A stretch of 10,026 nt of DNA, from IMG/VR virus record IMGVR_UViG_2778261454_000013; one strand, given 5' to 3'. Position numbers and translations under genes: made by a program. The notes beneath the pieces were generated by a model. The model was given only the letters and a program-made list of their open reading frames with translations, was not told the DNA's origin and did not search any database. The DNA is from a virus. Lineage: Duplodnaviria; Heunggongvirae; Uroviricota; Caudoviricetes. Below are positions 1-10,026 of this stretch, piece by piece; the first letter of the stretch is position 1; the number at the start of each line of letters is the position of its first letter.

Positions 1-411
1 ATGGCTCAGGTTGCCATTTTTAAACAAATATTCGATAAAGTGCGAAATAATTTAAACTATCACTGGTTTTATTCTGAACTAAAACGTCACAATGTCTCAC
101 ATTACATTTACTATTTAGCTACAGAGAATATTCATCTTGTTCTTGAAAACGATAATACGGTTTTAATAAAAGGACAGGGTAAGGTTGTAAATGTAAGATT
201 TTCAAAAAATAAATGCCTTATAGAAGCCACCTTAAAAGGATTCAAATCAGGAGAGTTATCATTTTACGAATACAGGAAAAATCTTGCTACAGCAGGGGTT
301 TTCAGATGGATTACAAATATCCACGAAAACAAAAGGTATTACTATACCTTTGATAATTCATTACTCTTTACTGAGAACATTCAGAACACTACACAAATAT
401 TTCCGCACTAA
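1..411 (+). CDS. ybcV: DUF1398-family prophage protein (YbcV-like), 136 aa
   Basis: ORF starts with ATG at window position 1. Translation ([14 protein letters not shown]...[12 protein letters not shown]...[13 protein letters not shown]) matches my recollection of DLP12 YbcV in sequence and length. Antiparallel to the lysis cassette, as in DLP12. Confidence 0.6.
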
Positions 412-760
412 ATCATAACGTCCGGTTTCTTCCGTGCCAGAACCGGACTCGCTGGCATGATGAAATATGTGTACCCGGTAACCCCGGTGTGCATCGTTTT
501 TGATTATTCCCGCACACTCGCGCAGAAGGAGTTCCCCGTCGGGCTACGGTCTCTGTTAATACGGGAATACGGCGACGATACAGCGCATGATGTGTCAGGC
601 TTGAATGCCTTTATCCGTTAAAAGGGATATCAGTTAAGTTATCCCGTGCAGGGTATAAGCCATTATCAAGCCCACCCGTAGATGGGCTTTGTAATGGATA
701 GCCGTTGCTCAGTTCTAGTAATGCTTTGATTTTTTCGATAACGCAGTTTTGCGTTTGCCA

Positions 761-1282
761 TCAGCACGCGATATCGAGAGTCAACTGCAGTTGCTCGCGC
801 CAGTACTCAACATTTGCTTCAATAACCGGCTTATCCCATCGCCAGCGAGCCATCTCTCTTGCCCCATTGCTGGCTTTTGATTTCCGGTCATCGCGAATGC
901 GACATGCTTGCTCATATTTCTGCTGCTCAGTCAGTTCACCGCGAAGCAGACTATCAATGTGCAGGTCGCACCACACAGCAAAACGAGCATCACACCAACG
1001 GGCAAATGCAACTGAAAGTTTTGGATGTAGCCACGTACCACCACCCCTGTCCTTTCGTGCCTTGCTGGTTTTTACATACCTCGATTGTGAGGGATGTAAA
1101 ATTTGAGATTCTTTCCCGGTCAACGCTTCGTCTAAAGCACGAACGTATTCAAGCGTTTCTGCCAAACGCATCCAGTTATCAATGCGTTTCCCAAATCTCT
1201 CAGCAACACCTGTGACGTTGATCCAACCATCAGTGTTGAAACTGACAATTTCACCTTTGTAATTAAGTGGCACGATATTCAT
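761..1282 (-). CDS. KilA-N domain protein, 173 aa (possible antirepressor-like or truncated)
   Basis: Translation contains a KilA-N-like core (GGTWLHPKLSVAFARWCDARFAVWCD). AGGT Shine-Dalgarno-like motif about 8 nt upstream of the ATG. Overlapping plus-strand ORFs 705..1106 and 859..1215 are Cys/Ser-rich and judged spurious. Confidence 0.55.
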   Translation of the reverse strand: MNIVPLNYKGEIVSFNTDGWINVTGVAERFGKRIDNWMRLAETLEYVRALDEALTGKESQILHPSQSRYVKTSKARKDRGGGTWLHPKLSVAFARWCDARFAVWCDLHIDSLLRGELTEQQKYEQACRIRDDRKSKASNGAREMARWRWDKPVIEANVEYWREQLQLTLDIAC

Positions 1283-1397
1283 AACGTTTACCTACCATTT
1301 GAAATGAACCTTTGCCGCACAGGAAACCAGCCCACCGAGGCTCGCCAGCACTAACTGGTATCCTCAAAGGCCCATTCCAAAGGGGCAGGTTCGGTGT

Positions 1398-1424
1398 AAA
1401 AAAAACATGCGTTGCGGTACGCAT
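1398..1424 (-). terminator. Putative intrinsic terminator downstream of Rz (second of two in tandem)
   Basis: Minus-strand hairpin ATGCGT-ACCGCA-ACGCAT (plus 1407..1424) followed by a run of 8 T on the minus strand (plus A-tract 1398..1405). Confidence 0.4.
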
Positions 1425-1430
1425 TTATTG

Positions 1431-1454
1431 CAAAAAAGCCCCGCATCGCGAGGC
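1431..1454 (-). terminator. Putative intrinsic terminator immediately downstream of Rz
   Basis: Minus-strand hairpin GCCTCGC-GAT-GCGGGGC (7-bp stem with one G.U, plus 1438..1454) followed by TTTTTT on the minus strand (plus A-tract 1432..1437). Confidence 0.5.
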
Positions 1455-1486
1455 TCATTAAATGGACTTTGTGATTTGCAAAAAAA

Positions 1487-1924
1487 TTATTTCAGACATT
1501 GCGTCCTGATGTACTCCTGCAGGTAGTTAACCTGCGCGGTTATCCTGTCGATTCCACTTCGGAGACGGTAATAATTGAGTTCAGCATCTGCTGTAAGTCT
1601 TGGGCTTTCTCCATCGCCCATGCTGCTGGCTCCGGTCTTTGACTTTGCACAGGAGGCGGCGACTTGCAGCCGCTTACGCCCAGCAGAAACATCATCACGG
1701 AGACTTTCGATAGTCGCGTTAGCATCAGCAAGCTCCTTTGTATATCTGGCATCGAGTTCTGCTACGTCACGTTGACGCTTCTGCATGTCAGCGATGATGG
1801 ATGTGGCTTTGTCGCGCTGTTCTTTGTAGGTCATGGCGTTATCACGGTAATGATTAACAGCCCATGACAGGCAGACGATGATGCAGATAACCAGAGCGGA
1901 GATAATCGCGGTTACTCTGTTCAT
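1487..1924 (-). CDS. rzpD: Rz-type i-spanin (inner-membrane spanin), 145 aa
   Basis: N-terminal TM segment ([21 protein letters not shown]) followed by a charged coiled-coil-like periplasmic domain. ATG at 1924 overlaps the endolysin stop as ATGA. The ORF track's longer form starts at 1936 (MGSAMNRV). Confidence 0.75.
1540..1725 (-). CDS. rzoD: Rz1-type o-spanin lipoprotein, embedded in the +1 frame of Rz, 61 aa
   Basis: Embedded ORF entirely inside Rz. Signal peptide with lipobox ([20 protein letters not shown]), then proline-rich mature region ([13 protein letters not shown]). Start chosen at the Met giving a canonical lipoprotein signal; the exact start is uncertain. Confidence 0.6.
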
Positions 1925-2418
1925 TGCTGACCCCACAAACAGATTTCACGCTCAATCTCACGACGAGTCATGAGACCTTTCCATTGCTTACCGCCAGCAT
2001 ATGTCCAGCGACGTAGCTGATCACATGCGCCTTTGATATCGCCCTGGTTTATTTTGCGAAGAAGCGTCGATGTTCTGAAATTGCCAGCACCCACGTTGTA
2101 AACGAATGAGTAAAGAGCGCCGCGCATTGTTTCCGGTATATCGACTTTGATGTACGGGTTAATTTGTCTGGCGACCGTGGCAAGGTCTTTATTCAGGAGG
2201 GCTTTGCATTCTGCTTTGGTATACGTTTTACCGAGCATGATGTCTTTTCCTGTATGCCCGTGACATACAGTCCATACACCAACAATATCTTTGTATGGTA
2301 TGTAGCTGACACCTTCCAGACCATCGTTACCACTTGGGCCAGTAATTAACACTGATGCTATAGCAATTGCTCCGCCACCAATAGCAGCAGCAACGGCTTT
2401 TCGTAATGATGGAGGCAT
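1921..2418 (-). CDS. rrrD: SAR endolysin (phage lysozyme, R21/RrrD-like), 165 aa
   Basis: N-terminal signal-anchor-release-like hydrophobic segment ([20 protein letters not shown]) followed by a lysozyme domain ([23 protein letters not shown]). Start ATG overlaps the holin stop (TAATG on the minus strand). Confidence 0.85.
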
Positions 2419-2633
2419 TATTCACCTCTCGCAGCCTTGCGCTTATCTTCTTTAATCTTGAAATAAAGGTTTGTCAGGTACGTCAGCAGGCCAAATACCA
2501 GGCTACCCAGCACACCTATTGCTGCCCACTGTGAGGGCGTGACTTTATCGAGCAGCTGTAAAAACCAGTAACCGGCACTACCTGCTGAGGTGCCATAGGC
2601 GACACCCGTTGTTAACTTATCCATGGATTTCAT
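2418..2633 (-). CDS. essD: Class II holin / pinholin (S21/EssD-like), 71 aa
   Basis: Start at MKSMDKL with GAGGTG Shine-Dalgarno upstream. Two in-frame Met codons (Met1, Met4) typical of holin/antiholin dual starts; two TM segments. The ORF-track start at 2678 is an upstream extension without ribosome-binding support. Confidence 0.8.
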
Positions 2634-3125
2634 AACCCCACCTCGCAGACAAAGCGGGTGTAAATTGAGGGAATACAACGTATCGCAAAAAAGCAGAAAC
2701 GTAACAGACTCGGAGTCAGTGAATAACTCAGGTATTGAGTTATCAGCTAATATCGAGACTCAAAAAATGGAAAAACCAGCTCGACGGCGGGTTTAAGCTG
2801 TGTGACGAAGTAACCACTCTTAACAGCATAACCAATTTTTTACGTACGTAAACCACTGAATGATATTTATGAGAATGCTACCGAGTGTTCAAAACACCAC
2901 CACAAATACATAAGAAAACCTCAACAAATAACCAATAAATAATTTCAGAGGTTATTTTTAGTTGATTTAAATTAAACTGCCGAATTATAGAACCCCCATA
3001 AATAACAGCCATTAATATAAATTAGCTAATAGGTTTATTTTTGTTCAAATAAGAGCCATAAATAGGTTTCGATAGAAAAAGTTCAGATAAAAATAGAGAT
3101 CTACTTCACAAATTAAATGAGAAAC

Positions 3126-3150
3126 TAAAACTTACATCTTGAAATAATCA
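3126..3150 (+). promoter_or_regulatory. OmpR-box-like motif in the porin upstream region
   Basis: Sequence AAACTTACATCTTGAAATAATCAC resembles the ompC OmpR-binding half-sites (TTTACATTTTGAAACATCTA) as I recall them. Lies about 80 bp upstream of the porin ATG inside an AT-rich ~540 bp ORF-free region. Confidence 0.3.
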
Positions 3151-3221
3151 CATTGATTAGATGAATATTTATCGCGCAGTGACATCATTTTTTAATAATA
3201 GTTCAAAAAAAAGGGCTCACG

Positions 3222-4304
3222 ATGAAAAAATTAACAGTGGCAATTTCTGCTGTAGCTGCATCAGTACTGATGGCGATGTCTGCTCAGGCAGCTGAAATTT
3301 ATAATAAAGACAGTAACAAGCTGGATCTGTACGGGAAAGTTAATGCTAAGCACTACTTCTCCTCTAATGATGCAGATGATGGTGATACTACTTATGCCCG
3401 TCTTGGCTTCAAAGGTGAAACCCAAATCAACGATCAACTGACTGGTTTCGGTCAGTGGGAATATGAATTCAAAGGCAACCGCGCTGAATCTCAAGGTTCC
3501 TCCAAAGACAAAACCCGTCTTGCATTTGCAGGCCTGAAATTCGGTGACTACGGCTCAATCGATTACGGCCGTAACTACGGTGTAGCATACGACATCGGTG
3601 CGTGGACTGACGTTCTGCCAGAATTCGGTGGCGATACCTGGACCCAAACAGATGTATTCATGACTGGTCGCACCACAGGTGTTGCAACTTATCGTAACAA
3701 CGACTTCTTTGGTCTGGTTGATGGCCTGAACTTTGCAGCTCAGTATCAGGGCAAAAATGACCGAAATGAAGTAACTGAAGCTAATGGCGATGGTTTCGGT
3801 TTCTCAACTACTTATGAGTATGAAGGATTCGGCGTGGGTGCAACCTATGCTAAATCTGATCGCACTAATAATCAGGTTATCTACGGTAACAACGGTCTGA
3901 ATGCTTCTGGTCAAAATGCTGAAGTATGGGCAGCTGGTCTGAAATATGATGCGAACAACATCTATCTGGCCACCACCTATTCTGAAACCCAGAACATGAC
4001 TGTTTTTGGTAATAACCATATTGCCAACAAAGCACAAAACTTCGAAGCTGTTGCACAATATCAGTTCGACTTCGGCCTGCGTCCATCCGTTGCTTACCTG
4101 CATTCTAAAGGAAAAGACTTGGGTGTTTGGGGTGATCAGGACCTGGTTGAATATGTTGATGTAGGTGCAACCTATTACTTCAACAAAAATATGTCCACTT
4201 TTGTTGACTACAAAATCAACCTGATTGATAAGAGCGATTTCACGAAAGCATCTGGCGTTGCTACCGATGATATCGTTGCTGTAGGTATGGTTTACCAGTT
4301 CTAA
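3222..4304 (+). CDS. nmpC: Phage-encoded general porin of the OmpC/OmpF family (NmpC/Lc-type), intact, 360 aa
   Basis: Signal peptide [23 protein letters not shown], mature N-terminus [22 protein letters not shown] loop-3 motif, C-terminal aromatic ...VGMVYQF. Full length with no interruption. Sits between Q and the holin on the opposite strand, as nmpC does in DLP12. Confidence 0.9.
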
Positions 4305-4470
4305 TTTGATTACTAAAAGATATGTTGCGGGAGGCTTTGCCTCCCCAACATATAAGTGGCTCCCTCAAGCCACTTCCTTTAGGAGCACAACCTTGCTTCT
4401 AACTATATAAACCTTCTGTTATATATTACCCTTTATTTTTGGGGGCGTCTCAACGCCCCATTTTTAATAA
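4305..4470 (+). ncRNA. ipeX: Structured porin 3' UTR, IpeX-like candidate regulatory RNA
   Basis: About 166 nt between the porin stop and a terminator. Three perfect hairpins: GGGAGGC-TTT-GCCTCCC (4329..4345), AAGTGGCT-CCCTCA-AGCCACTT (4354..4375), GGGGCGT-CTCA-ACGCCCC (4442..4459). IpeX is described as lying in the nmpC/lc 3' UTR before its terminator. Confidence 0.4.
4442..4470 (+). terminator. Rho-independent terminator ending the porin transcript
   Basis: 7-bp GC-rich stem, 4-nt loop, followed by TTTTTAATAATTTTT. About 25 bp before the convergent Q stop codon. Confidence 0.55.
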
Positions 4471-4492
4471 TTTTTAGTAAACAATTGGCATA

Positions 4493-4876
4493 TTAATTAG
4501 AGTTATTAACAACGATATCCATCTCTAACCGGATATCTAATGCCATTAACATCCCTTCAATTATACCCTCAGCCTTCTGTAACCTTTTCCCGATATAACC
4601 ATCAGAGCAGCAATGCTTACCTGCCAGTGACATGAATGTCATACCGACTACATAATAATCTACTAATAAATCGTGCAAATCGCTGTTGTTCTTTTTCAGA
4701 CGGGCCATGCACCCGCAAATGATCATCGCGTCATCGTCACAACATTGCGGGCGAGATTTTACTTTTGAAGGAATTAATCCCTTAAAACCGGCGGCAATGG
4801 ACGACCAGGTCACATCTTCATGATTATTAGCCGCCCACGCTCCCCAACGCTCAAGAACCATCTGAATATCACGCAT
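4493..4876 (-). CDS. quuD: Late-gene antitermination protein Q (QuuD-like), 127 aa
   Basis: Cys-rich zinc-binding motif ([19 protein letters not shown] ... GKHCCSDGY). ATG at 4876 preceded by GGAG. The ORF-track start at 4891 is a TTG five codons upstream. Transcribed in the same direction as the lysis cassette. Confidence 0.75.
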
Positions 4877-5120
4877 CAACTTACTCCACAAAAATCAGAC
4901 CAGAACGCCAATTACAAGCAAAAATCAATAAAACAGTATTAGTTGATTGTTATCTCTGACTTCATACTCCTGCTCCTGTCAGGGTTTTGGCGTAATTCCT
5001 CAGTATTCGGTAATCGGTCAAAACAGAACCGGGGAAACGATATAAGCGCAGGCGCATCCAGCGGTGGCGAAGACGTTCTGCCATATAAGACTCAAACATC
5101 ATTCATCTCCCAGTTCAGTG

Positions 5121-5303
5121 ATGGTCAGTTCCAGCTTCCCACCTTTGGTAGGCACGATCACTTTCGTCTACTCCGTTACGAAGCGAGGCTGGGTATTTCC
5201 CGGCCTTTCTGTTATCCGAAATCCCCTGAAAGCACAGCGGCTGGCTGAGGAGATAAATAATAAACGGGGAGCTGTATGCACAAAGCATCTCCCGTTGAGT
5301 TAA
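5121..5303 (+). CDS. Small pL-operon ORF (lambda orf60a-like by position and length), 60 aa
   Basis: ATG at 5121 gives MVSSSFPPLVG...; ends at 5303, overlapping the next ORF by 28 nt. This matches my memory of the lambda orf60a/orf63 overlap. Identity not verifiable here. Confidence 0.4.
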   Translation: MVSSSFPPLVGTITFVYSVTKRGWVFPGLSVIRNPLKAQRLAEEINNKRGAVCTKHLPLS

Positions 5304-5467
5304 GAACGAGTATCGAGATGGCACATAGCCTCGCTCAAATTGGAGTCAGGTTTGTGCCAATACCAGTAGAAACAGACGAAGAATTTCATACGTTAGCCGC
5401 ATCCCTTTCACAAAAGCTGGAAATGATGGTGGCGAAAGCAGAAGCAGATGAGAGAGACCAGGTATGA
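5276..5467 (+). CDS. Small pL-operon ORF (lambda orf63-like), 63 aa
   Basis: GGGGAG Shine-Dalgarno 4 nt upstream of the ATG. Balanced composition (MHKASPVELRTSIEMAHSLAQIG...). Stop overlaps a downstream ATG as ATGA. Confidence 0.5.
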   Translation: MHKASPVELRTSIEMAHSLAQIGVRFVPIPVETDEEFHTLAASLSQKLEMMVAKAEADERDQV

Positions 5468-5759
5468 CAACCACGGAATGCATTTTTCTGGCAGCGGGCT
5501 TCATATTCTGTGTGCTTATGCTTGCCGACATGGGACTTGTTCAATGACACCTCAGCAGGAAAACGCCCTTCGCAGCATTGCCCGTCAGGCTAATTCTGAA
5601 ATCAAAAAAGCCAGACAGCAGTTTCCGGATAAAAACGTCGATGACATTTGCCGTAGCGTACTGAAGAAGCACCGCGAAACGGTAACGCTGATGGGATTCA
5701 CACCGACTCATTTAAGCCTGGCAATCGGCATGTTAAACGGCGTCTTTAAGGAACGATGA
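5448..5759 (+). CDS. Hypothetical small protein (lambda orf61 position); start uncertain
   Basis: ORF overlaps the preceding gene by 20 nt if it starts at 5448 (103 aa). An internal ATG at 5544 (MTPQQENALRSIARQ..., 71 aa) overlaps, as ATGA, the stop of an intervening 27-codon ORF. Confidence 0.4.
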   Translation: MRETRYDNHGMHFSGSGLHILCAYACRHGTCSMTPQQENALRSIARQANSEIKKARQQFPDKNVDDICRSVLKKHRETVTLMGFTPTHLSLAIGMLNGVFKER

Positions 5760-5780
5760 ACATGAAAAGCAAAATCATCA

Positions 5781-5802
5781 GGGAGCTACAGGCTCCTTTT
5801 TT
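5781..5802 (+). terminator. Possible intrinsic terminator or attenuator between small ORFs
   Basis: Hairpin GGAGC-TACAG-GCTCC followed by TTTTTT. Alternatively this stretch lies inside a 31-codon ORF (5756..5851). Confidence 0.3.
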
Positions 5803-5857
5803 ATTATTCGCATTCACCCTCAAGCGTATTAACCAACAATTCAGGGATTAATGGAAG

Positions 5858-6079
5858 ATGGCAGACATCATTGATTCAGCATCAGAAATTGAAGAATTAC
5901 AGCGCAACACAGCAATAAAAATGCGCCGCCTGAACCACCAGGCTATATCTGCCACTCATTGTTGTGAGTGTGGCGATCCGATAGATGAACGAAGACGCCT
6001 GGTCGTTCAGGGTTGTCGGACTTGTGCAAGTTGCCAGGAGGATCTGGAGCTTATCAGTAAACAGAGAGGTTCGAAGTGA
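5858..6079 (+). CDS. TraR/DksA-family C4 zinc-finger protein (lambda Orf73-like), 73 aa
   Basis: Motif CCECGDPIDERRRLVVQGCRTCASC fits the DksA/TraR CxxC-(N17)-CxxC zinc finger with conserved G, I and R positions. The 73-aa length matches TraR-like phage proteins. Confidence 0.7.
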   Translation: MADIIDSASEIEELQRNTAIKMRRLNHQAISATHCCECGDPIDERRRLVVQGCRTCASCQEDLELISKQRGSK

Positions 6080-6176
6080 GCGAAATTAACTAGAAGCCAA
6101 AGATAAAATCATCGCTGAGCAGGAGAAAATCGCTAACGGAGAAAAGACAGTAAGTCAGTATATGAAAACCGCATGA
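6076..6176 (+). pseudogene. Probable ea22-like remnant, interrupted after codon 5
   Basis: GTG at 6076 overlaps the upstream stop (GTGA) and encodes (M)SEIN, then an in-frame TAG. From memory lambda Ea22 begins MSEINSQ. A shifted frame continues EAKDKIIAEQEKIANGEKTVSQYMKTA to 6176. Confidence 0.3.
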
Positions 6177-6231
6177 TATCATCAGATAAAAATCGGTCGT
6201 AAAGCGAAATATTAATACCAGAACAAACGAG

Positions 6232-6255
6232 TCGAGGTAAATTATATTACCTCGA
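6232..6255 (-). terminator. Strong hairpin downstream of the membrane-protein gene (putative terminator)
   Basis: Perfect 9-bp stem TCGAGGTAA-ATTATA-TTACCTCGA (6232..6255), about 35 bp past the minus-strand stop. The downstream minus-strand sequence is only moderately U-rich (ctcgtttgttctgg). Confidence 0.4.
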
Positions 6256-6289
6256 TAAATTAACTAAAACTTGCCCGCTATATACTATA

Positions 6290-6892
6290 TCATTCAGTAT
6301 CATCACGCGCGGTCTGTGCATATGTCACTACCGCACCTAATATATTAATTTTCTTTTCAACATAGATAATATTATCGTACTCATAATTGCCATACGGATA
6401 GCAAATGCGAATATTCTCATGTAGTTCGGGGTCATCCACCTCAGCTCCAGAACAACTTTTTGAACTACCGGAAGTATACCGATACGGTGCAACATAAGAC
6501 GATGTCTCTCCAGGCAAAAAATAAGTTAGTGTCGTAAGGGGTATAATCAGAAAAAATCCAGCAAATATGCACATCCCTGCATAAACCTTAAGGTATGCTG
6601 ACAGACTCTTCCAGCCTCTTTGTTTTACTATCCCCTTCTTAACCCAAAACAGAGATAACAGAAAAGCTATTCCCATGCTAAACAGAATGTAATAGTGGGA
6701 TATACTCTGATTAAGAAACGTGACCCTGTAGATATCTGCCCGCCACCAGAAGAAAAGGAAAATAAAGATCAGCCCTGAAACTGTCATGCAAATCAAATAA
6801 GGATACGAATCTTTTTTCATGTTTAGCGCCCATAAAATTTTTCCTGACCCGGACAAATTTACCATCCATTTTTTGCGCAGAAAATAGCTCAT
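6290..6892 (-). CDS. Unrecognised integral membrane protein (3 predicted TM helices plus ~75-aa C-terminal domain), up to 200 aa
   Basis: Long minus-strand ORF in a markedly AT-rich segment. Hydrophobic stretches LICMTVSGLIFIFLFFWW, YYILFSMGIAFLLSLFWV and VYAGMCIFAGFFLIIPLTTLTYFL, then a polar tail with Cys and Tyr residues. No clear Shine-Dalgarno at any candidate start (6892, 6865, 6820). TATTAT hexamer at 6906..6911 on the transcribed strand. Confidence 0.55.
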   Translation of the reverse strand: MSYFLRKKWMVNLSGSGKILWALNMKKDSYPYLICMTVSGLIFIFLFFWWRADIYRVTFLNQSISHYYILFSMGIAFLLSLFWVKKGIVKQRGWKSLSAYLKVYAGMCIFAGFFLIIPLTTLTYFLPGETSSYVAPYRYTSGSSKSCSGAEVDDPELHENIRICYPYGNYEYDNIIYVEKKINILGAVVTYAQTARDDTE

Positions 6893-7065
6893 TACTTACT
6901 GCACAATAATACACAAAATTGCGTAAATTTTTTGCATGGATTTTAGCTCTTTCAGCCGAAATTTAAGGGGTAAATAGCATTTCCTAAAAGCAACTGCACC
7001 AACCCAACAGAATGGGCTACCGCTTACGTTGAGAGCAAAAAAGTGTATAGCAGCAATGAACAGCA

Positions 7066-7094
7066 TCCTCGCACTGACGAGGATTTCTTTTATC
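7066..7094 (+). terminator. Hairpin with T-tract near the right edge of the cargo segment
   Basis: TCCTCG-CACTGA-CGAGGA followed by TTTCTTTTAT. Confidence 0.3.
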
Positions 7095-7134
7095 TGAACT
7101 CGCTACGGCGGGTTTTGTTTTATGGAGATGATAA

Positions 7135-7302
7135 ATGCACTTCCGAGTCACAGGTGAATGGAATGGAGAACCATTCAACAGAGTTATCGAAGCCGAGAAC
7201 ATCAGCGACTGCTATGACCACTGGATGCTGTGGGCGCAGATAGCACATGCAGACGTAACCAATATTCGAATTGAAGAACTGAAAGAACACCAAGCCGCCT
7301 GA
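7135..7302 (+). CDS. Small pL-operon ORF upstream of xis (lambda orf55-like), 55 aa
   Basis: GGAGA Shine-Dalgarno 6 nt upstream of the ATG; translation MHFRVTGEWNGEPFNRVIEAENISDCYDHWMLWAQIAHADVTNIRIEELKEHQAA. The 40-bp gap to xis matches the lambda layout as I recall it. Confidence 0.5.
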   Translation: MHFRVTGEWNGEPFNRVIEAENISDCYDHWMLWAQIAHADVTNIRIEELKEHQAA

Positions 7303-7317
7303 TGGCGGTTTTTTCTT
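7294..7317 (+). terminator. Intrinsic terminator-like hairpin between orf55 and xis
   Basis: GCCGCC-TGAT-GGCGG followed by TTTTTTCTT. The orf55 stop codon lies in the loop. Confidence 0.45.
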
Positions 7318-7360
7318 GCGTGTAATTGCGGAGACTTTGCGATGTACTTGACACTTCAGG
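7316..7360 (+). promoter_or_regulatory. pI-like, CII-activated int promoter region
   Basis: TTGC-N6-TTGC direct repeat (7316..7319 and 7326..7329) just upstream of and overlapping the xis start, as in lambda pI. Confidence 0.5.
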
Positions 7361-7560
7361 AGTGGAACGCACGCCAGCGACGCCCAAGAAGCCTTGAAAC
7401 AGTTCGTCGATGGGTACGCGAGTGCAGGATATTCCCTCCTCCGGTTAAGGATGGAAGAGAGTATCTGTTCCACGAATCAGCGGTAAAGGTTGACTTAAAT
7501 CGACCAGTAACAGGTAGCCTTTTGAAGAGGATCAGAAATGGGAAGAAGGCGAAGTCATGA
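7342..7560 (+). CDS. xis: Excisionase Xis, 72 aa
   Basis: Translation MYLTLQEWNARQRRPRSLETVRRWVRECRIFPPPVKDGREYLFHES... appears identical to lambda Xis. Overlaps int by 23 nt. Confidence 0.95.
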   Translation: MYLTLQEWNARQRRPRSLETVRRWVRECRIFPPPVKDGREYLFHESAVKVDLNRPVTGSLLKRIRNGKKAKS

Positions 7561-8608
7561 GCGCCGGGATTTACCCCCTAACCTTTATATAAGAAACAAT
7601 GGATATTACTGCTACAGGGACCCAAGGACGGGTAAAGAGTTTGGATTAGGCAGAGACAGGCGAATCGCAATCACTGAAGCCATACAGGCCAACATTGAGT
7701 TATTTTCAGGACACAAACACAAGCCTCTGACAGCGAGAATCAACAGTGATAATTCCGTTACGTTACATTCATGGCTTGATCGCTACGAAAAAATCCTGGC
7801 CAGCAGAGGAATCAAGCAGAAGACACTCATAAATTACATGAGCAAAATTAAAGCAATAAGGAGGGGTCTGCCTGATGCTCCACTTGAAGACATCACCACA
7901 AAAGAAATTGCGGCAATGCTCAATGGATACATAGACGAGGGCAAGGCGGCGTCAGCCAAGTTAATCAGATCAACACTGAGCGATGCATTCCGAGAGGCAA
8001 TAGCTGAAGGCCATATAACAACAAACCCTGTCGCTGCCACTCGCGCAGCAAAATCAGAGGTAAGGAGATCAAGACTTACGGCTGACGAATACCTGAAAAT
8101 TTATCAAGCAGCAGAATCATCACCATGTTGGCTCAGACTTGCAATGGAACTGGCTGTTGTTACCGGGCAACGAGTTGGTGATTTATGCGAAATGAAGTGG
8201 TCTGATATCGTAGATGGATATCTTTATGTCGAGCAAAGCAAAACAGGCGTAAAAATTGCCATCCCAACAGCATTGCATGTTGATGCTCTCGGAATATCAA
8301 TGAAGGAAACACTTGATAAATGCAAAGAGATTCTTGGCGGAGAAACCATAATTGCATCTACTCGTCGCGAACCGCTTTCATCCGGCACAGTATCAAGGTA
8401 TTTTATGCGCGCACGAAAAGCATCAGGTCTTTCCTTCGAAGGGGATCCGCCTACCTTTCACGAGTTGCGCAGTTTGTCTGCAAGACTCTATGAGAAGCAG
8501 ATAAGCGATAAGTTTGCTCAACATCTTCTCGGGCATAAGTCGGACACCATGGCATCACAGTATCGTGATGACAGAGGCAGGGAGTGGGACAAAATTGAAA
8601 TCAAATAA
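7538..8608 (+). CDS. int: Tyrosine integrase Int (lambda Int), 356 aa
   Basis: Translation MGRRRSHERRDLPPNLYIRNNGYYCYRDPRTGKEFGLGRDRRIAITEA... with C-terminal catalytic region ...HELRSLSARLYEKQ...LLGHKSDTMASQYRDD. Full length. Confidence 0.97.
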   Translation: MGRRRSHERRDLPPNLYIRNNGYYCYRDPRTGKEFGLGRDRRIAITEAIQANIELFSGHKHKPLTARINSDNSVTLHSWLDRYEKILASRGIKQKTLINYMSKIKAIRRGLPDAPLEDITTKEIAAMLNGYIDEGKAASAKLIRSTLSDAFREAIAEGHITTNPVAATRAAKSEVRRSRLTADEYLKIYQAAESSPCWLRLAMELAVVTGQRVGDLCEMKWSDIVDGYLYVEQSKTGVKIAIPTALHVDALGISMKETLDKCKEILGGETIIASTRREPLSSGTVSRYFMRARKASGLSFEGDPPTFHELRSLSARLYEKQISDKFAQHLLGHKSDTMASQYRDDRGREWDKIEIK

Positions 8609-8712
8609 TGATTTTATTTTGACTGATAGTGACCTGTTCGTTGCAACAAATTGATAAGCAATGCTTTTTTATAATGCCAACTTAGTATAAAAAAGCAGGC
8701 TTCAACGGATTC
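8609..8712. other. attL: attL recombination site: phage P' arm, 15-bp core, bacterial B arm
   Basis: Core TTAGTATAAAAAAGC at 8682..8696 is the reverse complement of the lambda core GCTTTTTTATACTAA. P' arm carries arm-type Int sites (AGGTCACTAT on the opposite strand) and an IHF-like TTGATAAGCA element. Beyond the core is GCAGGCTTCAACGGATTCAT. Confidence 0.85.
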
Positions 8713-8742
8713 ATTTTTCTATTTCATAGCCCGGAGCAACCT

Positions 8743-10026
8743 GTGAACACATTTTCAGTTTCCCGTCTGGCGCTGGCATTGGCTTTTGGCGTGACGCTGA
8801 CCGCCTGTAGCTCAACCCCGCCCGATCAACGTCCTTCTGATCAAACCGCGCCTGGTACCTCTTCTCGCCCGATTCTGTCGGCAAAAGAAGCGCAGAATTT
8901 CGATGCTCAACACTATTTTGCATCCCTGACACCAGGTGCTGCAGCGTGGAATCCTTCCCCGATTACCCTGCCTGCGCAACCTGAATTTGTTGTCGGCCCG
9001 GCGGGCACTCAAGGTGTAACGCATACCACGATTCAGGCGGCGGTAGATGCGGCAATTATCAAGCGTACCAACAAGCGCCAGTATATTGCCGTGATGCCTG
9101 GTGAGTATCAGGGAACGGTATATGTCCCTGCCGCTCCGGGTGGAATTACTCTGTACGGTACAGGTGAAAAACCGATTGATGTGAAGATTGGGCTTTCCCT
9201 TGATGGTGGCATGAGCCCTGCCGACTGGCGTCACGACGTCAACCCGCGCGGCAAATATATGCCAGGTAAACCAGCGTGGTATATGTACGATAGCTGCCAG
9301 AGCAAACGCAGCGACAGTATCGGTGTTCTCTGCTCTGCGGTCTTCTGGTCACAAAACAATGGCCTGCAACTGCAAAATCTGACCATCGAAAACACGCTGG
9401 GCGATAGCGTAGATGCAGGTAACCATCCGGCGGTGGCACTGCGTACTGATGGTGACCAGGTACAGATTAACAACGTTAACATTCTCGGTCGTCAGAACAC
9501 CTTCTTTGTCACCAACAGCGGTGTGCAGAACCGTCTGGAAACGAATCGTCAGCCGCGTACGCTGGTGACCAACAGCTACATTGAAGGGGATGTGGATATC
9601 GTTTCTGGTCGCGGCGCAGTGGTGTTCGATAACACCGAATTCCGCGTGGTGAACTCACGTACTCAGCAAGAAGCGTATGTGTTTGCACCGGCTACGCTGT
9701 CCAACATTTACTACGGTTTCCTCGCCGTAAACAGCCGTTTCAATGCTTTCGGTGATGGTGTGGCGCAACTGGGCCGCTCGCTGGATGTTGATGCCAATAC
9801 CAACGGTCAGGTGGTGATCCGTGATAGCGCCATCAACGAAGGTTTTAACACGGCTAAACCGTGGGCCGATGCGGTGATCTCTAATCGTCCGTTTGCGGGT
9901 AATACCGGCAGCGTAGATGATAACGACGAAATACAGCGCAATCTGAATGACACTAACTACAACCGCATGTGGGAATACAATAACCGCGGCGTGGGTAGTA
10001 AAGTGGTTGCAGAGGCGAAGAAGTAA
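8743..10026 (+). CDS. ybhC: Host outer-membrane lipoprotein YbhC (pectinesterase-fold acyl-CoA thioesterase family), 427 aa, complete
   Basis: GTG start with GGAG upstream. Lipoprotein signal MNTFSVSRLALALAFGVTLTAC. Full-length ORF ending at the window edge with TAA. ybhC is the chromosomal gene flanking the lambda attachment site. Confidence 0.95.
   Translation: MNTFSVSRLALALAFGVTLTACSSTPPDQRPSDQTAPGTSSRPILSAKEAQNFDAQHYFASLTPGAAAWNPSPITLPAQPEFVVGPAGTQGVTHTTIQAAVDAAIIKRTNKRQYIAVMPGEYQGTVYVPAAPGGITLYGTGEKPIDVKIGLSLDGGMSPADWRHDVNPRGKYMPGKPAWYMYDSCQSKRSDSIGVLCSAVFWSQNNGLQLQNLTIENTLGDSVDAGNHPAVALRTDGDQVQINNVNILGRQNTFFVTNSGVQNRLETNRQPRTLVTNSYIEGDVDIVSGRGAVVFDNTEFRVVNSRTQQEAYVFAPATLSNIYYGFLAVNSRFNAFGDGVAQLGRSLDVDANTNGQVVIRDSAINEGFNTAKPWADAVISNRPFAGNTGSVDDNDEIQRNLNDTNYNRMWEYNNRGVGSKVVAEAKK

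Follow-up and report, generated by a model that had tools for sequence, protein, structure and literature searches.

By sequence comparison, the open reading frame (ORF) at 5858-6079 (+) of the window, which is the entire 10,026-nt stretch of DNA analyzed here, is the phage lambda gene orf73 carried by a remnant of a lambda/434-type prophage, and its product has already been characterized. Orf73 is a TraR-type binder of the RNA polymerase (RNAP) secondary channel; the assignment to this family is correct and was already known. Taking the locus as a whole, we consider it probable that this TraR-type RNAP inhibitor of lambda is silent or nearly so here and that its gene is passively retained in a recent remnant. 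The structure class, target, and phenotype of Orf73 have already been published, and most E. coli genomes carry the gene; only the loss of the native promoter of orf73 sets this locus apart.

Sequence, family, and activity of Orf73

The gene has the following features:

5858-6079, plus strand: orf73, encoding a TraR-family protein 73/73 identical to lambda Orf73, with DxxDxA at residues 3-8, the C35/C38/C56/C59 finger, R46/R47, and the extra cysteines C36 and C53

The ORF starts with ATG, ends with TGA, and is intact, with 0 frameshifts, 0 premature stops, and 0 motif residues lost; the 73-aa product has the sequence MADIIDSASEIEELQRNTAIKMRRLNHQAISATHCCECGDPIDERRRLVVQGCRTCASCQEDLELISKQRGSK. 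Its counterpart of identical protein sequence is an unannotated 73-codon ORF of phage lambda (2213-2434 of the lambda stretch compared). At the DNA level, 220 of the 222 nt (99.1%) are identical, and both differences leave the protein unchanged. The lambda GenBank record J02459 has no annotation between orf61 and ea22, and an ORF listing of that gap gave orf73. In lambda, orf73 belongs to the exo-xis region, in which the gene order is orf60a-orf63-orf61-orf73-ea22 (PMC4195576, PMC8614690). The two copies have the same place downstream of orf63 and orf61, as well as the same t2 hairpin, Shine-Dalgarno-like element, and start codon, and they differ in context only.

The original prediction of a TraR/DksA-like zinc-finger protein, based on the Cys-4 motif and the 73-aa size, was confirmed by profile searches. 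Pfam PF01258 (zf-dskA_traR) matched residues 33-64 with 34.8 bits (E=1.6e-08), above its gathering cut-off of 24.9 bits, and PHROG phrog_54 ("DksA-like zinc-finger protein") aligned over the full length of Orf73 at E=7.8e-25. NCBIfam TIGR02419 (phage/conjugal plasmid C4 zinc finger, TraR family) covered residues 3-64 on model positions 1-64 of 64 (E=1.1e-14) with 54.7 bits, 5 bits below the curated 59.7. Because phrog_54 matches over the full length with the E-value given above and PGAP calls the same DNA "TraR/DksA family transcriptional regulator," this shortfall appears to reflect the threshold of the TIGR02419 model and not the family. The YbiI-type model NF008243 matched at 2.9e-09 with 37 bits, far under its 96-bit cut-off, and the PADLOC defence models reached E=0.0099, with no stretch passing alone. 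Searching the PDB with the Orf73 sequence returned TraR of the F plasmid at the top (5W1S; 6N57 and related RNAP complexes) and YbiI (2KGO) as third-best.

Upon re-translation of 5858-6079, all four zinc-finger cysteines were kept, and C35, C38, C56, and C59 form a CxxC-x17-CxxC arrangement with exactly the spacing of F TraR. In a pairwise alignment with 34% identity, D3/D6/A8, C35/C38/C56/C59, and R46/R47 of Orf73 fall on D3/D6/A8, C37/C40/C58/C61, and R48/R49 of TraR, and the N-terminal motif D3-I-I-D6-S-A8 lies opposite D3-E-A-D6-E-A8. In TraR, R48/R49 are involved in contacts to the rim helix and beta'Si3 (PMC9239242). The two proteins are alike in having 73 aa, an N-terminal DxxDxA, the CxxC-17-CxxC finger, and an RR pair, and probably also in an N-terminal helix that carries the DxxDxA and a C-terminal helix; TraR has four cysteines and Orf73 has six.

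We also considered that orf73 might be a dead relic with a non-functional product, e.g., one in which the extra cysteines prevent folding. A single-sequence AlphaFold2 model with a mean pLDDT of only 56 could be taken in favor of this reading; however, the low pLDDT reflects prediction without an alignment, and the published Orf73 model made with an alignment has a pLDDT of 93 (PMC8614690). The helix layout of the low-confidence model (helix 5-33, non-helical 34-55, helix 56-70) fits the three-part arrangement of TraR, in which a single long N-terminal helix in place of a coiled coil is followed by a zinc globule and a C-terminal helix. The intact reading frame with all motif residues also argues against a dead relic, as does the finding that the identical purified protein is as active as TraR on rrnB P1 and complements a dksA-null strain (PMC9239242). 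We regard a dead relic as barely credible.

Lambda Orf73 was purified and characterized by Gopalkrishnan et al., mBio 2022 (PMC9239242). The protein competes with DksA for the site in the RNAP secondary channel and inhibits rrnB P1 with an IC50 of ~50 nM, like TraR, as well as rpsT P2; ppGpp is not needed, initiation is regulated with no binding of Orf73 to DNA, the complementation of the dksA-null strain was observed on minimal medium, and the D3N or D6N substitution cripples activity (PMC9239242). By contrast, the three amino-acid/stress promoters tested, i.e., thrABC, argI, and rpoH P3, are activated weakly if at all, possibly due to the two extra cysteines (PMC9239242). The proposal that the protein binds the secondary channel and mimics ppGpp/DksA is, therefore, borne out for the binding and, as to the mimicry, mainly for the strong inhibition of rRNA and ribosomal-protein promoters.

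Comparison with related proteins places these activities in context. F TraR (5W1S; RNAP complexes 6N57 and 6PSQ-6PSV) binds the same secondary-channel site and inhibits rrnB P1 independently of ppGpp with a similar IC50. Unlike Orf73, TraR activates thrABC, argI, and rpoH P3; it is also encoded in the tra operon of a conjugative plasmid, whereas Orf73 is phage-borne and expressed from pL in lambda. DksA and YbiI have the PF01258 C4 zinc finger and the RNAP-binding site in common with Orf73, but DksA has about twice the length, its acidic tip is borne by a coiled coil, and it is fully active only with ppGpp, whereas Orf73 and TraR have a single helix and do without ppGpp (PMC9239242). The Orf73 homologues of the Stx phages Phi24B and 933W and Orf82 of P2 belong to the same family.

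The N-terminal helix of Orf73 with D3/D6/A8 would reach through the secondary channel toward the RNAP active site, and the C4 zinc-finger globule together with the C-terminal helix would make contacts to the rim helices as well as to the insertions beta'Si3 and betaSi1; Orf73 inhibits rRNA and ribosomal-protein promoters without ppGpp. In a live phage, Orf73 is made early from pL with N antitermination, slowing growth of the host and giving a 3-4-fold larger burst. The RNAP and live-phage steps of this mechanism have been shown in the literature for the identical sequence. Specifically, Orf73 expressed from pL of a single-copy defective prophage caused slower growth and a ~10^4-fold lower plating efficiency, and the phage yield after induction was 3-4-fold higher with Orf73 (PMC9239242).

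An alternative main role of Orf73 would be to keep host DNA replication from initiating (the "bin" phenotype ascribed to the exo-xis region) via dnaA transcription or origin supercoiling, with ribosome reprogramming being secondary. According to the accounts given in PMC9239242 and PMC10789677, Sergueev et al. 2002 linked orf73, along with ea22, ea8.5, and orf55, to an inhibition of initiation. However, Orf73 from a single-copy prophage left dnaA mRNA little or not affected while clearly inhibiting rrn and rpsT (PMC9239242), and in the window a different cassette takes the place of ea22 and ea8.5, which are also bin candidates. We consider this role very unlikely as the main one; an effect on replication would be a downstream consequence of the same RNAP-binding mechanism and is compatible with Orf73 acting as a TraR-type RNAP inhibitor.

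The prophage remnant around orf73

The window corresponds to the att-proximal portion of what is left of a lambda-type prophage at att-lambda beside the host gene ybhC, which starts at 8743, beyond the att core. Its relevant features are as follows:

4493-4891, minus strand: quuD-type Q antiterminator gene, divergent from orf73
4962-5102, minus strand: ylcG, the last complete gene on the late-region side before the deletion junction
5121-5303, plus strand: orf60a (DUF1317) remnant with a foreign 5' end, spanning the deletion junction
5147-5151, no strand: deletion junction, at which the 3' tail of rusA (minus strand) is joined to orf60a at about codon 9 via GGTA(G) microhomology
5276-5467, plus strand: orf63 (DUF1382), intact (profile match and comparison with lambda)
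5448-5759, plus strand: long form of orf61, unbroken (103 aa, or 71 aa from the ATG at 5544); frameshifted in reference lambda
6290-7066, minus strand: two-gene cassette of the 434/mEp332 type (membrane proteins of 56 aa and 200 aa), replacing lambda ea22/ea8.5 and convergent on orf73
7135-7302, plus strand: 55-aa ORF (phrog_676) where lambda has orf55, the name orf55 being assigned by position
7342-7560, plus strand: xis, intact (profile match)
7538-8608, plus strand: int of the lambda type, intact (profile match and comparison)
8682-8696, minus strand: exact 15-bp att-lambda core GCTTTTTTATACTAA, the prophage/host junction between int and ybhC

The gene order orf60a'-orf63-orf61-orf73-...-xis-int-att agrees with that in lambda, 434, and mEp332. 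In a megablast search of 4900-7600 against phage genomes, the sequence from ~5147 onward was 98-99% identical to mEp332 and 434, and partly to lambda. To the left of the junction, a DLP12-like late region comprises the rusA 3' tail, ylcG, quuD (Q), a porin gene, the EssD/RrrD/Rz lysis genes, a KilA-N gene, and a DUF1398 gene; the plus strand upstream of orf60a' is antisense to rusA'/ylcG/quuD. The GGTA(G) microhomology at the junction is 4-5 bp long, matches both parental sequences, and is typical of illegitimate deletion.

In contrast to lambda, pL, N, and the early-left operon upstream of orf60a are deleted here, and ea22/ea8.5 downstream of orf73 have given way to the minus-strand membrane-protein cassette of the 434/mEp332 type. 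Upstream of orf60a' in the window, pL, nutL, and the recombination genes are all missing. Contig ABLNIT010000046.1 of GCA_029738555.1 matches all 10,026 bases of the window at 100.000% identity, and none of N, cI, cro, O, and P was called on the 18.6-kb stretch of this contig that was read. About 700 bp to the left of window position 1, the contig stretch contains a 485-aa ORF (1177-2634, minus strand) in which a complete terminase small-subunit Nu1 domain (residues 1-164) is fused in frame to the C-terminus of a tail fibre (Collar domain, phrog_295). This fusion is the scar of a second large deletion that removed the head and tail genes. A second att core was not found within the contig. The nearest chromosomal relative, E. 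coli LR-71-1, carries the same remnant without the 5147-5151 junction, and the interval there keeps rusA, ninX, IS5, cIII, kil, gam, bet, and exo.

The exact att core by ybhC and the two deletions document the decayed prophage in which orf73 had been proposed to lie. The accompanying claim that its neighbours are intact applies to orf63, the long form of orf61, orf55, xis, and int, but not to orf60a, the 5' end of which is lost, or to ea22/ea8.5.

A terminator at 6232-6255 belongs to the cassette at 6290-7066 (-). The 200-aa cassette protein is annotated as "putative membrane protein" in phages 434 and mEp332, and its C-terminal 88 residues match phrog_1416 of unknown function, which is the sole PHROG match of the cassette; Pfam, NCBIfam, and PADLOC searches with the cassette proteins gave no match. 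The cassette may be a moron. No RNA family was detected in the whole window with Rfam at gathering thresholds.

Several other observations concern the genes of the remnant. An A-run at ~5653-5658 in orf61 is A7 in reference lambda and A6 in the window, phage 434, and E. coli LR-71-1. Because A6 keeps the frame open and the long-form product matches phrog_303 at positions 1-93 of 101, lambda "orf61" seems to be a longer conserved gene that a frameshift has truncated. An intact gene for a 360-aa porin of the OmpC/NmpC type lies at 3222-4304 (+), flanked by Q and the holin gene and reading against the direction of the late operon; in related genomes, PGAP calls this gene ompC, and it has a strong terminator of its own at 4442-4459. 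Directly beyond the tail-fibre assembly gene on the contig stretch, a GGDEF diguanylate-cyclase gene (1-519, plus strand) is cut by the contig end; situated at the outer limit of the remnant, it may be either phage cargo (a b-region moron) or host DNA. The KilA-N gene at 761-1282 (-) is intact here (173 aa) and is split by an IS3-family element in LR-71-1 (1761-3544 of the stretch compared), which also carries IS5 where the immunity region is expected; therefore, related att-lambda remnants decay by different, independent events.

Expression signals upstream of orf73

Lambda transcribes its exo-xis genes from pL with the help of N antitermination and keeps them repressed in the lysogenic state (PMC9239242, PMC10789677). 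This mode of expression is unavailable at the locus described here, from which pL, nutL, and N are absent; their absence concerns the regulation of orf73 and not the identity of the protein. The following signals lie between the porin gene and orf73:

4442-4459, plus strand: porin terminator (-13.9 kcal/mol, z -3.7), 3' of the porin gene, blocking read-through toward orf73
5185-5207, plus strand: t1, a terminator-like hairpin in the orf60a remnant (-17.6 kcal/mol, z -2.8; Bloch et al. 2014 [PMC4195576])
5775-5807, plus strand: p1, a predicted weak promoter (-35 TCATCA, -10 box TTTTATTAT; BPROM prediction only, Bloch et al. 2014 [PMC4195576])
5780-5798, plus strand: t2, an intrinsic terminator in the orf61-orf73 interval, formed by a hairpin and a U6 tail (-10.2 kcal/mol, z -3.7; Bloch et al. 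2014 [PMC4195576])
5843-5847, plus strand: AGGGA, resembling a Shine-Dalgarno sequence, 10 nt before the ATG of orf73; the annotation of phage 434 has a ribosome binding site at the corresponding position

Bloch et al. 2014 (PMC4195576) predicted t1 and t2 in lambda and used them to explain the lower level of orf73/ea22/ea8.5 mRNA in this phage, in which orf73 mRNA is below that of the upstream genes (PMC4195576). In the Stx phage Phi24B after H2O2 treatment, orf73/ea22 mRNA was instead more abundant than the mRNA of the genes upstream, a pattern in keeping with an internal promoter (PMC4195576). Phi24B and 933W have the same conserved exo-xis block (orf60a-orf63-orf61-orf73-ea22), including t2 and p1 of identical sequence; however, their copies reside in inducible, complete prophages with pL and N, and expression patterns have been reported to differ.

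The p1 sequence of Bloch et al. 2014 is conserved in the window. In our scoring, the predicted -35 and -10 hexamers match at 3/6 and 5/6 positions, respectively, with a 21-nt spacer, and the predicted -10 coincides with the U-tract of t2. A hexamer scan of the plus strand from 4300 to 5860, a method that is blind to promoters needing activators or other sigma factors, gave one good sigma-70-like site (10/12) at 4627-4656 (+), antisense inside quuD and upstream of t1 and t2. If t1 and t2 are leaky, this site could feed read-through transcripts to orf73. On the plus strand 3' of t2 up to 5860, the best sigma-70-like site scored only 8/12. In the remnant, orf73 sits behind the porin terminator, t1, and t2 and lacks a credible sigma-70 promoter, and it would be silent or nearly so. 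From this arrangement of signals, we infer that transcription of orf73 in the remnant is at most weak. Such weak transcription would also account for the toleration of an intact growth-inhibiting gene without a repressor. A continuing effect of orf73 on the host appears unlikely on the same sequence evidence.

Conversely, orf73 might still be expressed, from the predicted p1, from a stress-responsive promoter, or by read-through, and might have been kept as a domesticated ppGpp-independent brake on the transcription of host rRNA and ribosomal-protein genes. The retained p1 sequence and the Phi24B mRNA pattern are consistent with such expression, as are the intact ORF, Shine-Dalgarno-like element, and functional residues; moreover, at an IC50 of ~50 nM, even low expression could matter. 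On the other side, p1 is a computer prediction with a poor -35, an overlong spacer, and a -10 made up of the t2 U-tract, orf73 mRNA in lambda is lower than that of the upstream genes, and Orf73 is costly to the cell, as judged from the growth and plating defects, with no repressor left in the remnant. We consider continued expression of this kind unlikely. The narrower version, in which p1, perhaps under oxidative stress, drives orf73 as a domesticated "mini-stringent" brake on ribosome synthesis without ppGpp, is in our estimation distinctly unlikely.

Between orf61 and orf73, a 29-codon ORF at 5762-5851 (+), MKSKIIRELQAPFLLFAFTLKRINQQFRD, is annotated in 434 and mEp332 and contains the t2 hairpin inside its coding sequence; a search of this ORF against PHROG gave no match.

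Retention and conservation of orf73

The original prediction had taken the retention of orf73 in a decayed prophage as a sign that the protein may still modulate host transcription. Owing to the abundance of lambdoid prophages, orf73 is common in E. coli: its DNA was found in 3,316 of 5,426 complete genomes (61%) at 4,718 places, and it is routinely annotated as a TraR/DksA family transcriptional regulator. By contrast, the rusA'-orf60a' junction was present in none of these 5,426 genomes, and the 60-aa ORF that spans it occurred in only three contigs of a large public gene index. Look-ups of the junction-spanning 79-aa (+) and 69-aa (-) ORFs gave no result. A scan for exact junction 40-mers among the GTDB species representatives also gave 0 hits, a weak result with one genome per species. 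The absence from the complete genomes and the occurrence in three contigs indicate that the deletion at ~5147-5151 is rare and, therefore, presumably recent.

In a comparison by segment, the identity of orf73 is 97.3-99.1% with lambda, 434, and mEp332 and 95.9% with LR-71-1, while the non-coding segments 5760-5857, 6080-6289, and 6893-7134 reach 98-100% with their closest phage counterparts. Thus, orf73 is no better conserved than the adjoining non-coding DNA, and its intactness is therefore what is expected of a young remnant without selection. We also evaluated the possibility that intactness implies selection, and rejected it, as the flanking non-coding DNA is equally or better conserved.

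These results bear on continued expression as well. Speaking against a brake kept by the host, orf73 shows no selection signal, the deletion is rare and therefore young, and the gene occurs in so many genomes simply through common lambdoid prophages. Our preferred reading is that orf73 survives through recent deletions that would have happened to spare the att-proximal exo-xis block, and not through host selection; on the available comparisons, its retention looks passive. The suggestion of continued host modulation is, accordingly, unsupported, given the loss of pL and N, the upstream t1 and t2, the lack of a good promoter, the rare and recent deletion, and the absence of excess conservation; with the weak predicted p1 still present, it is unlikely rather than refuted. 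Because orf73 is an ordinary known gene without its normal promoter in a recently gutted prophage, its survival says nothing about a new host function.

Should TraR-like genes left behind in prophage remnants that lack a promoter be expressed, a host could throttle rRNA synthesis independently of ppGpp, and if orf73 were driven by p1, a phage anti-host factor would have been turned into a regulator of host growth. Nothing in this locus indicates expression of stranded TraR-like genes.

The region 5276-8742 is a fine-scale mosaic. Here, orf63 and the segment from 6080 to xis are essentially of the mEp332 type (99.5-100%), orf61-orf73 are nearest to lambda (99.1-99.5%), and int is nearest to lambda (99.7%) and identical to that of LR-71-1. 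Recombination among lambdoid phages has reshuffled the exo-xis block.
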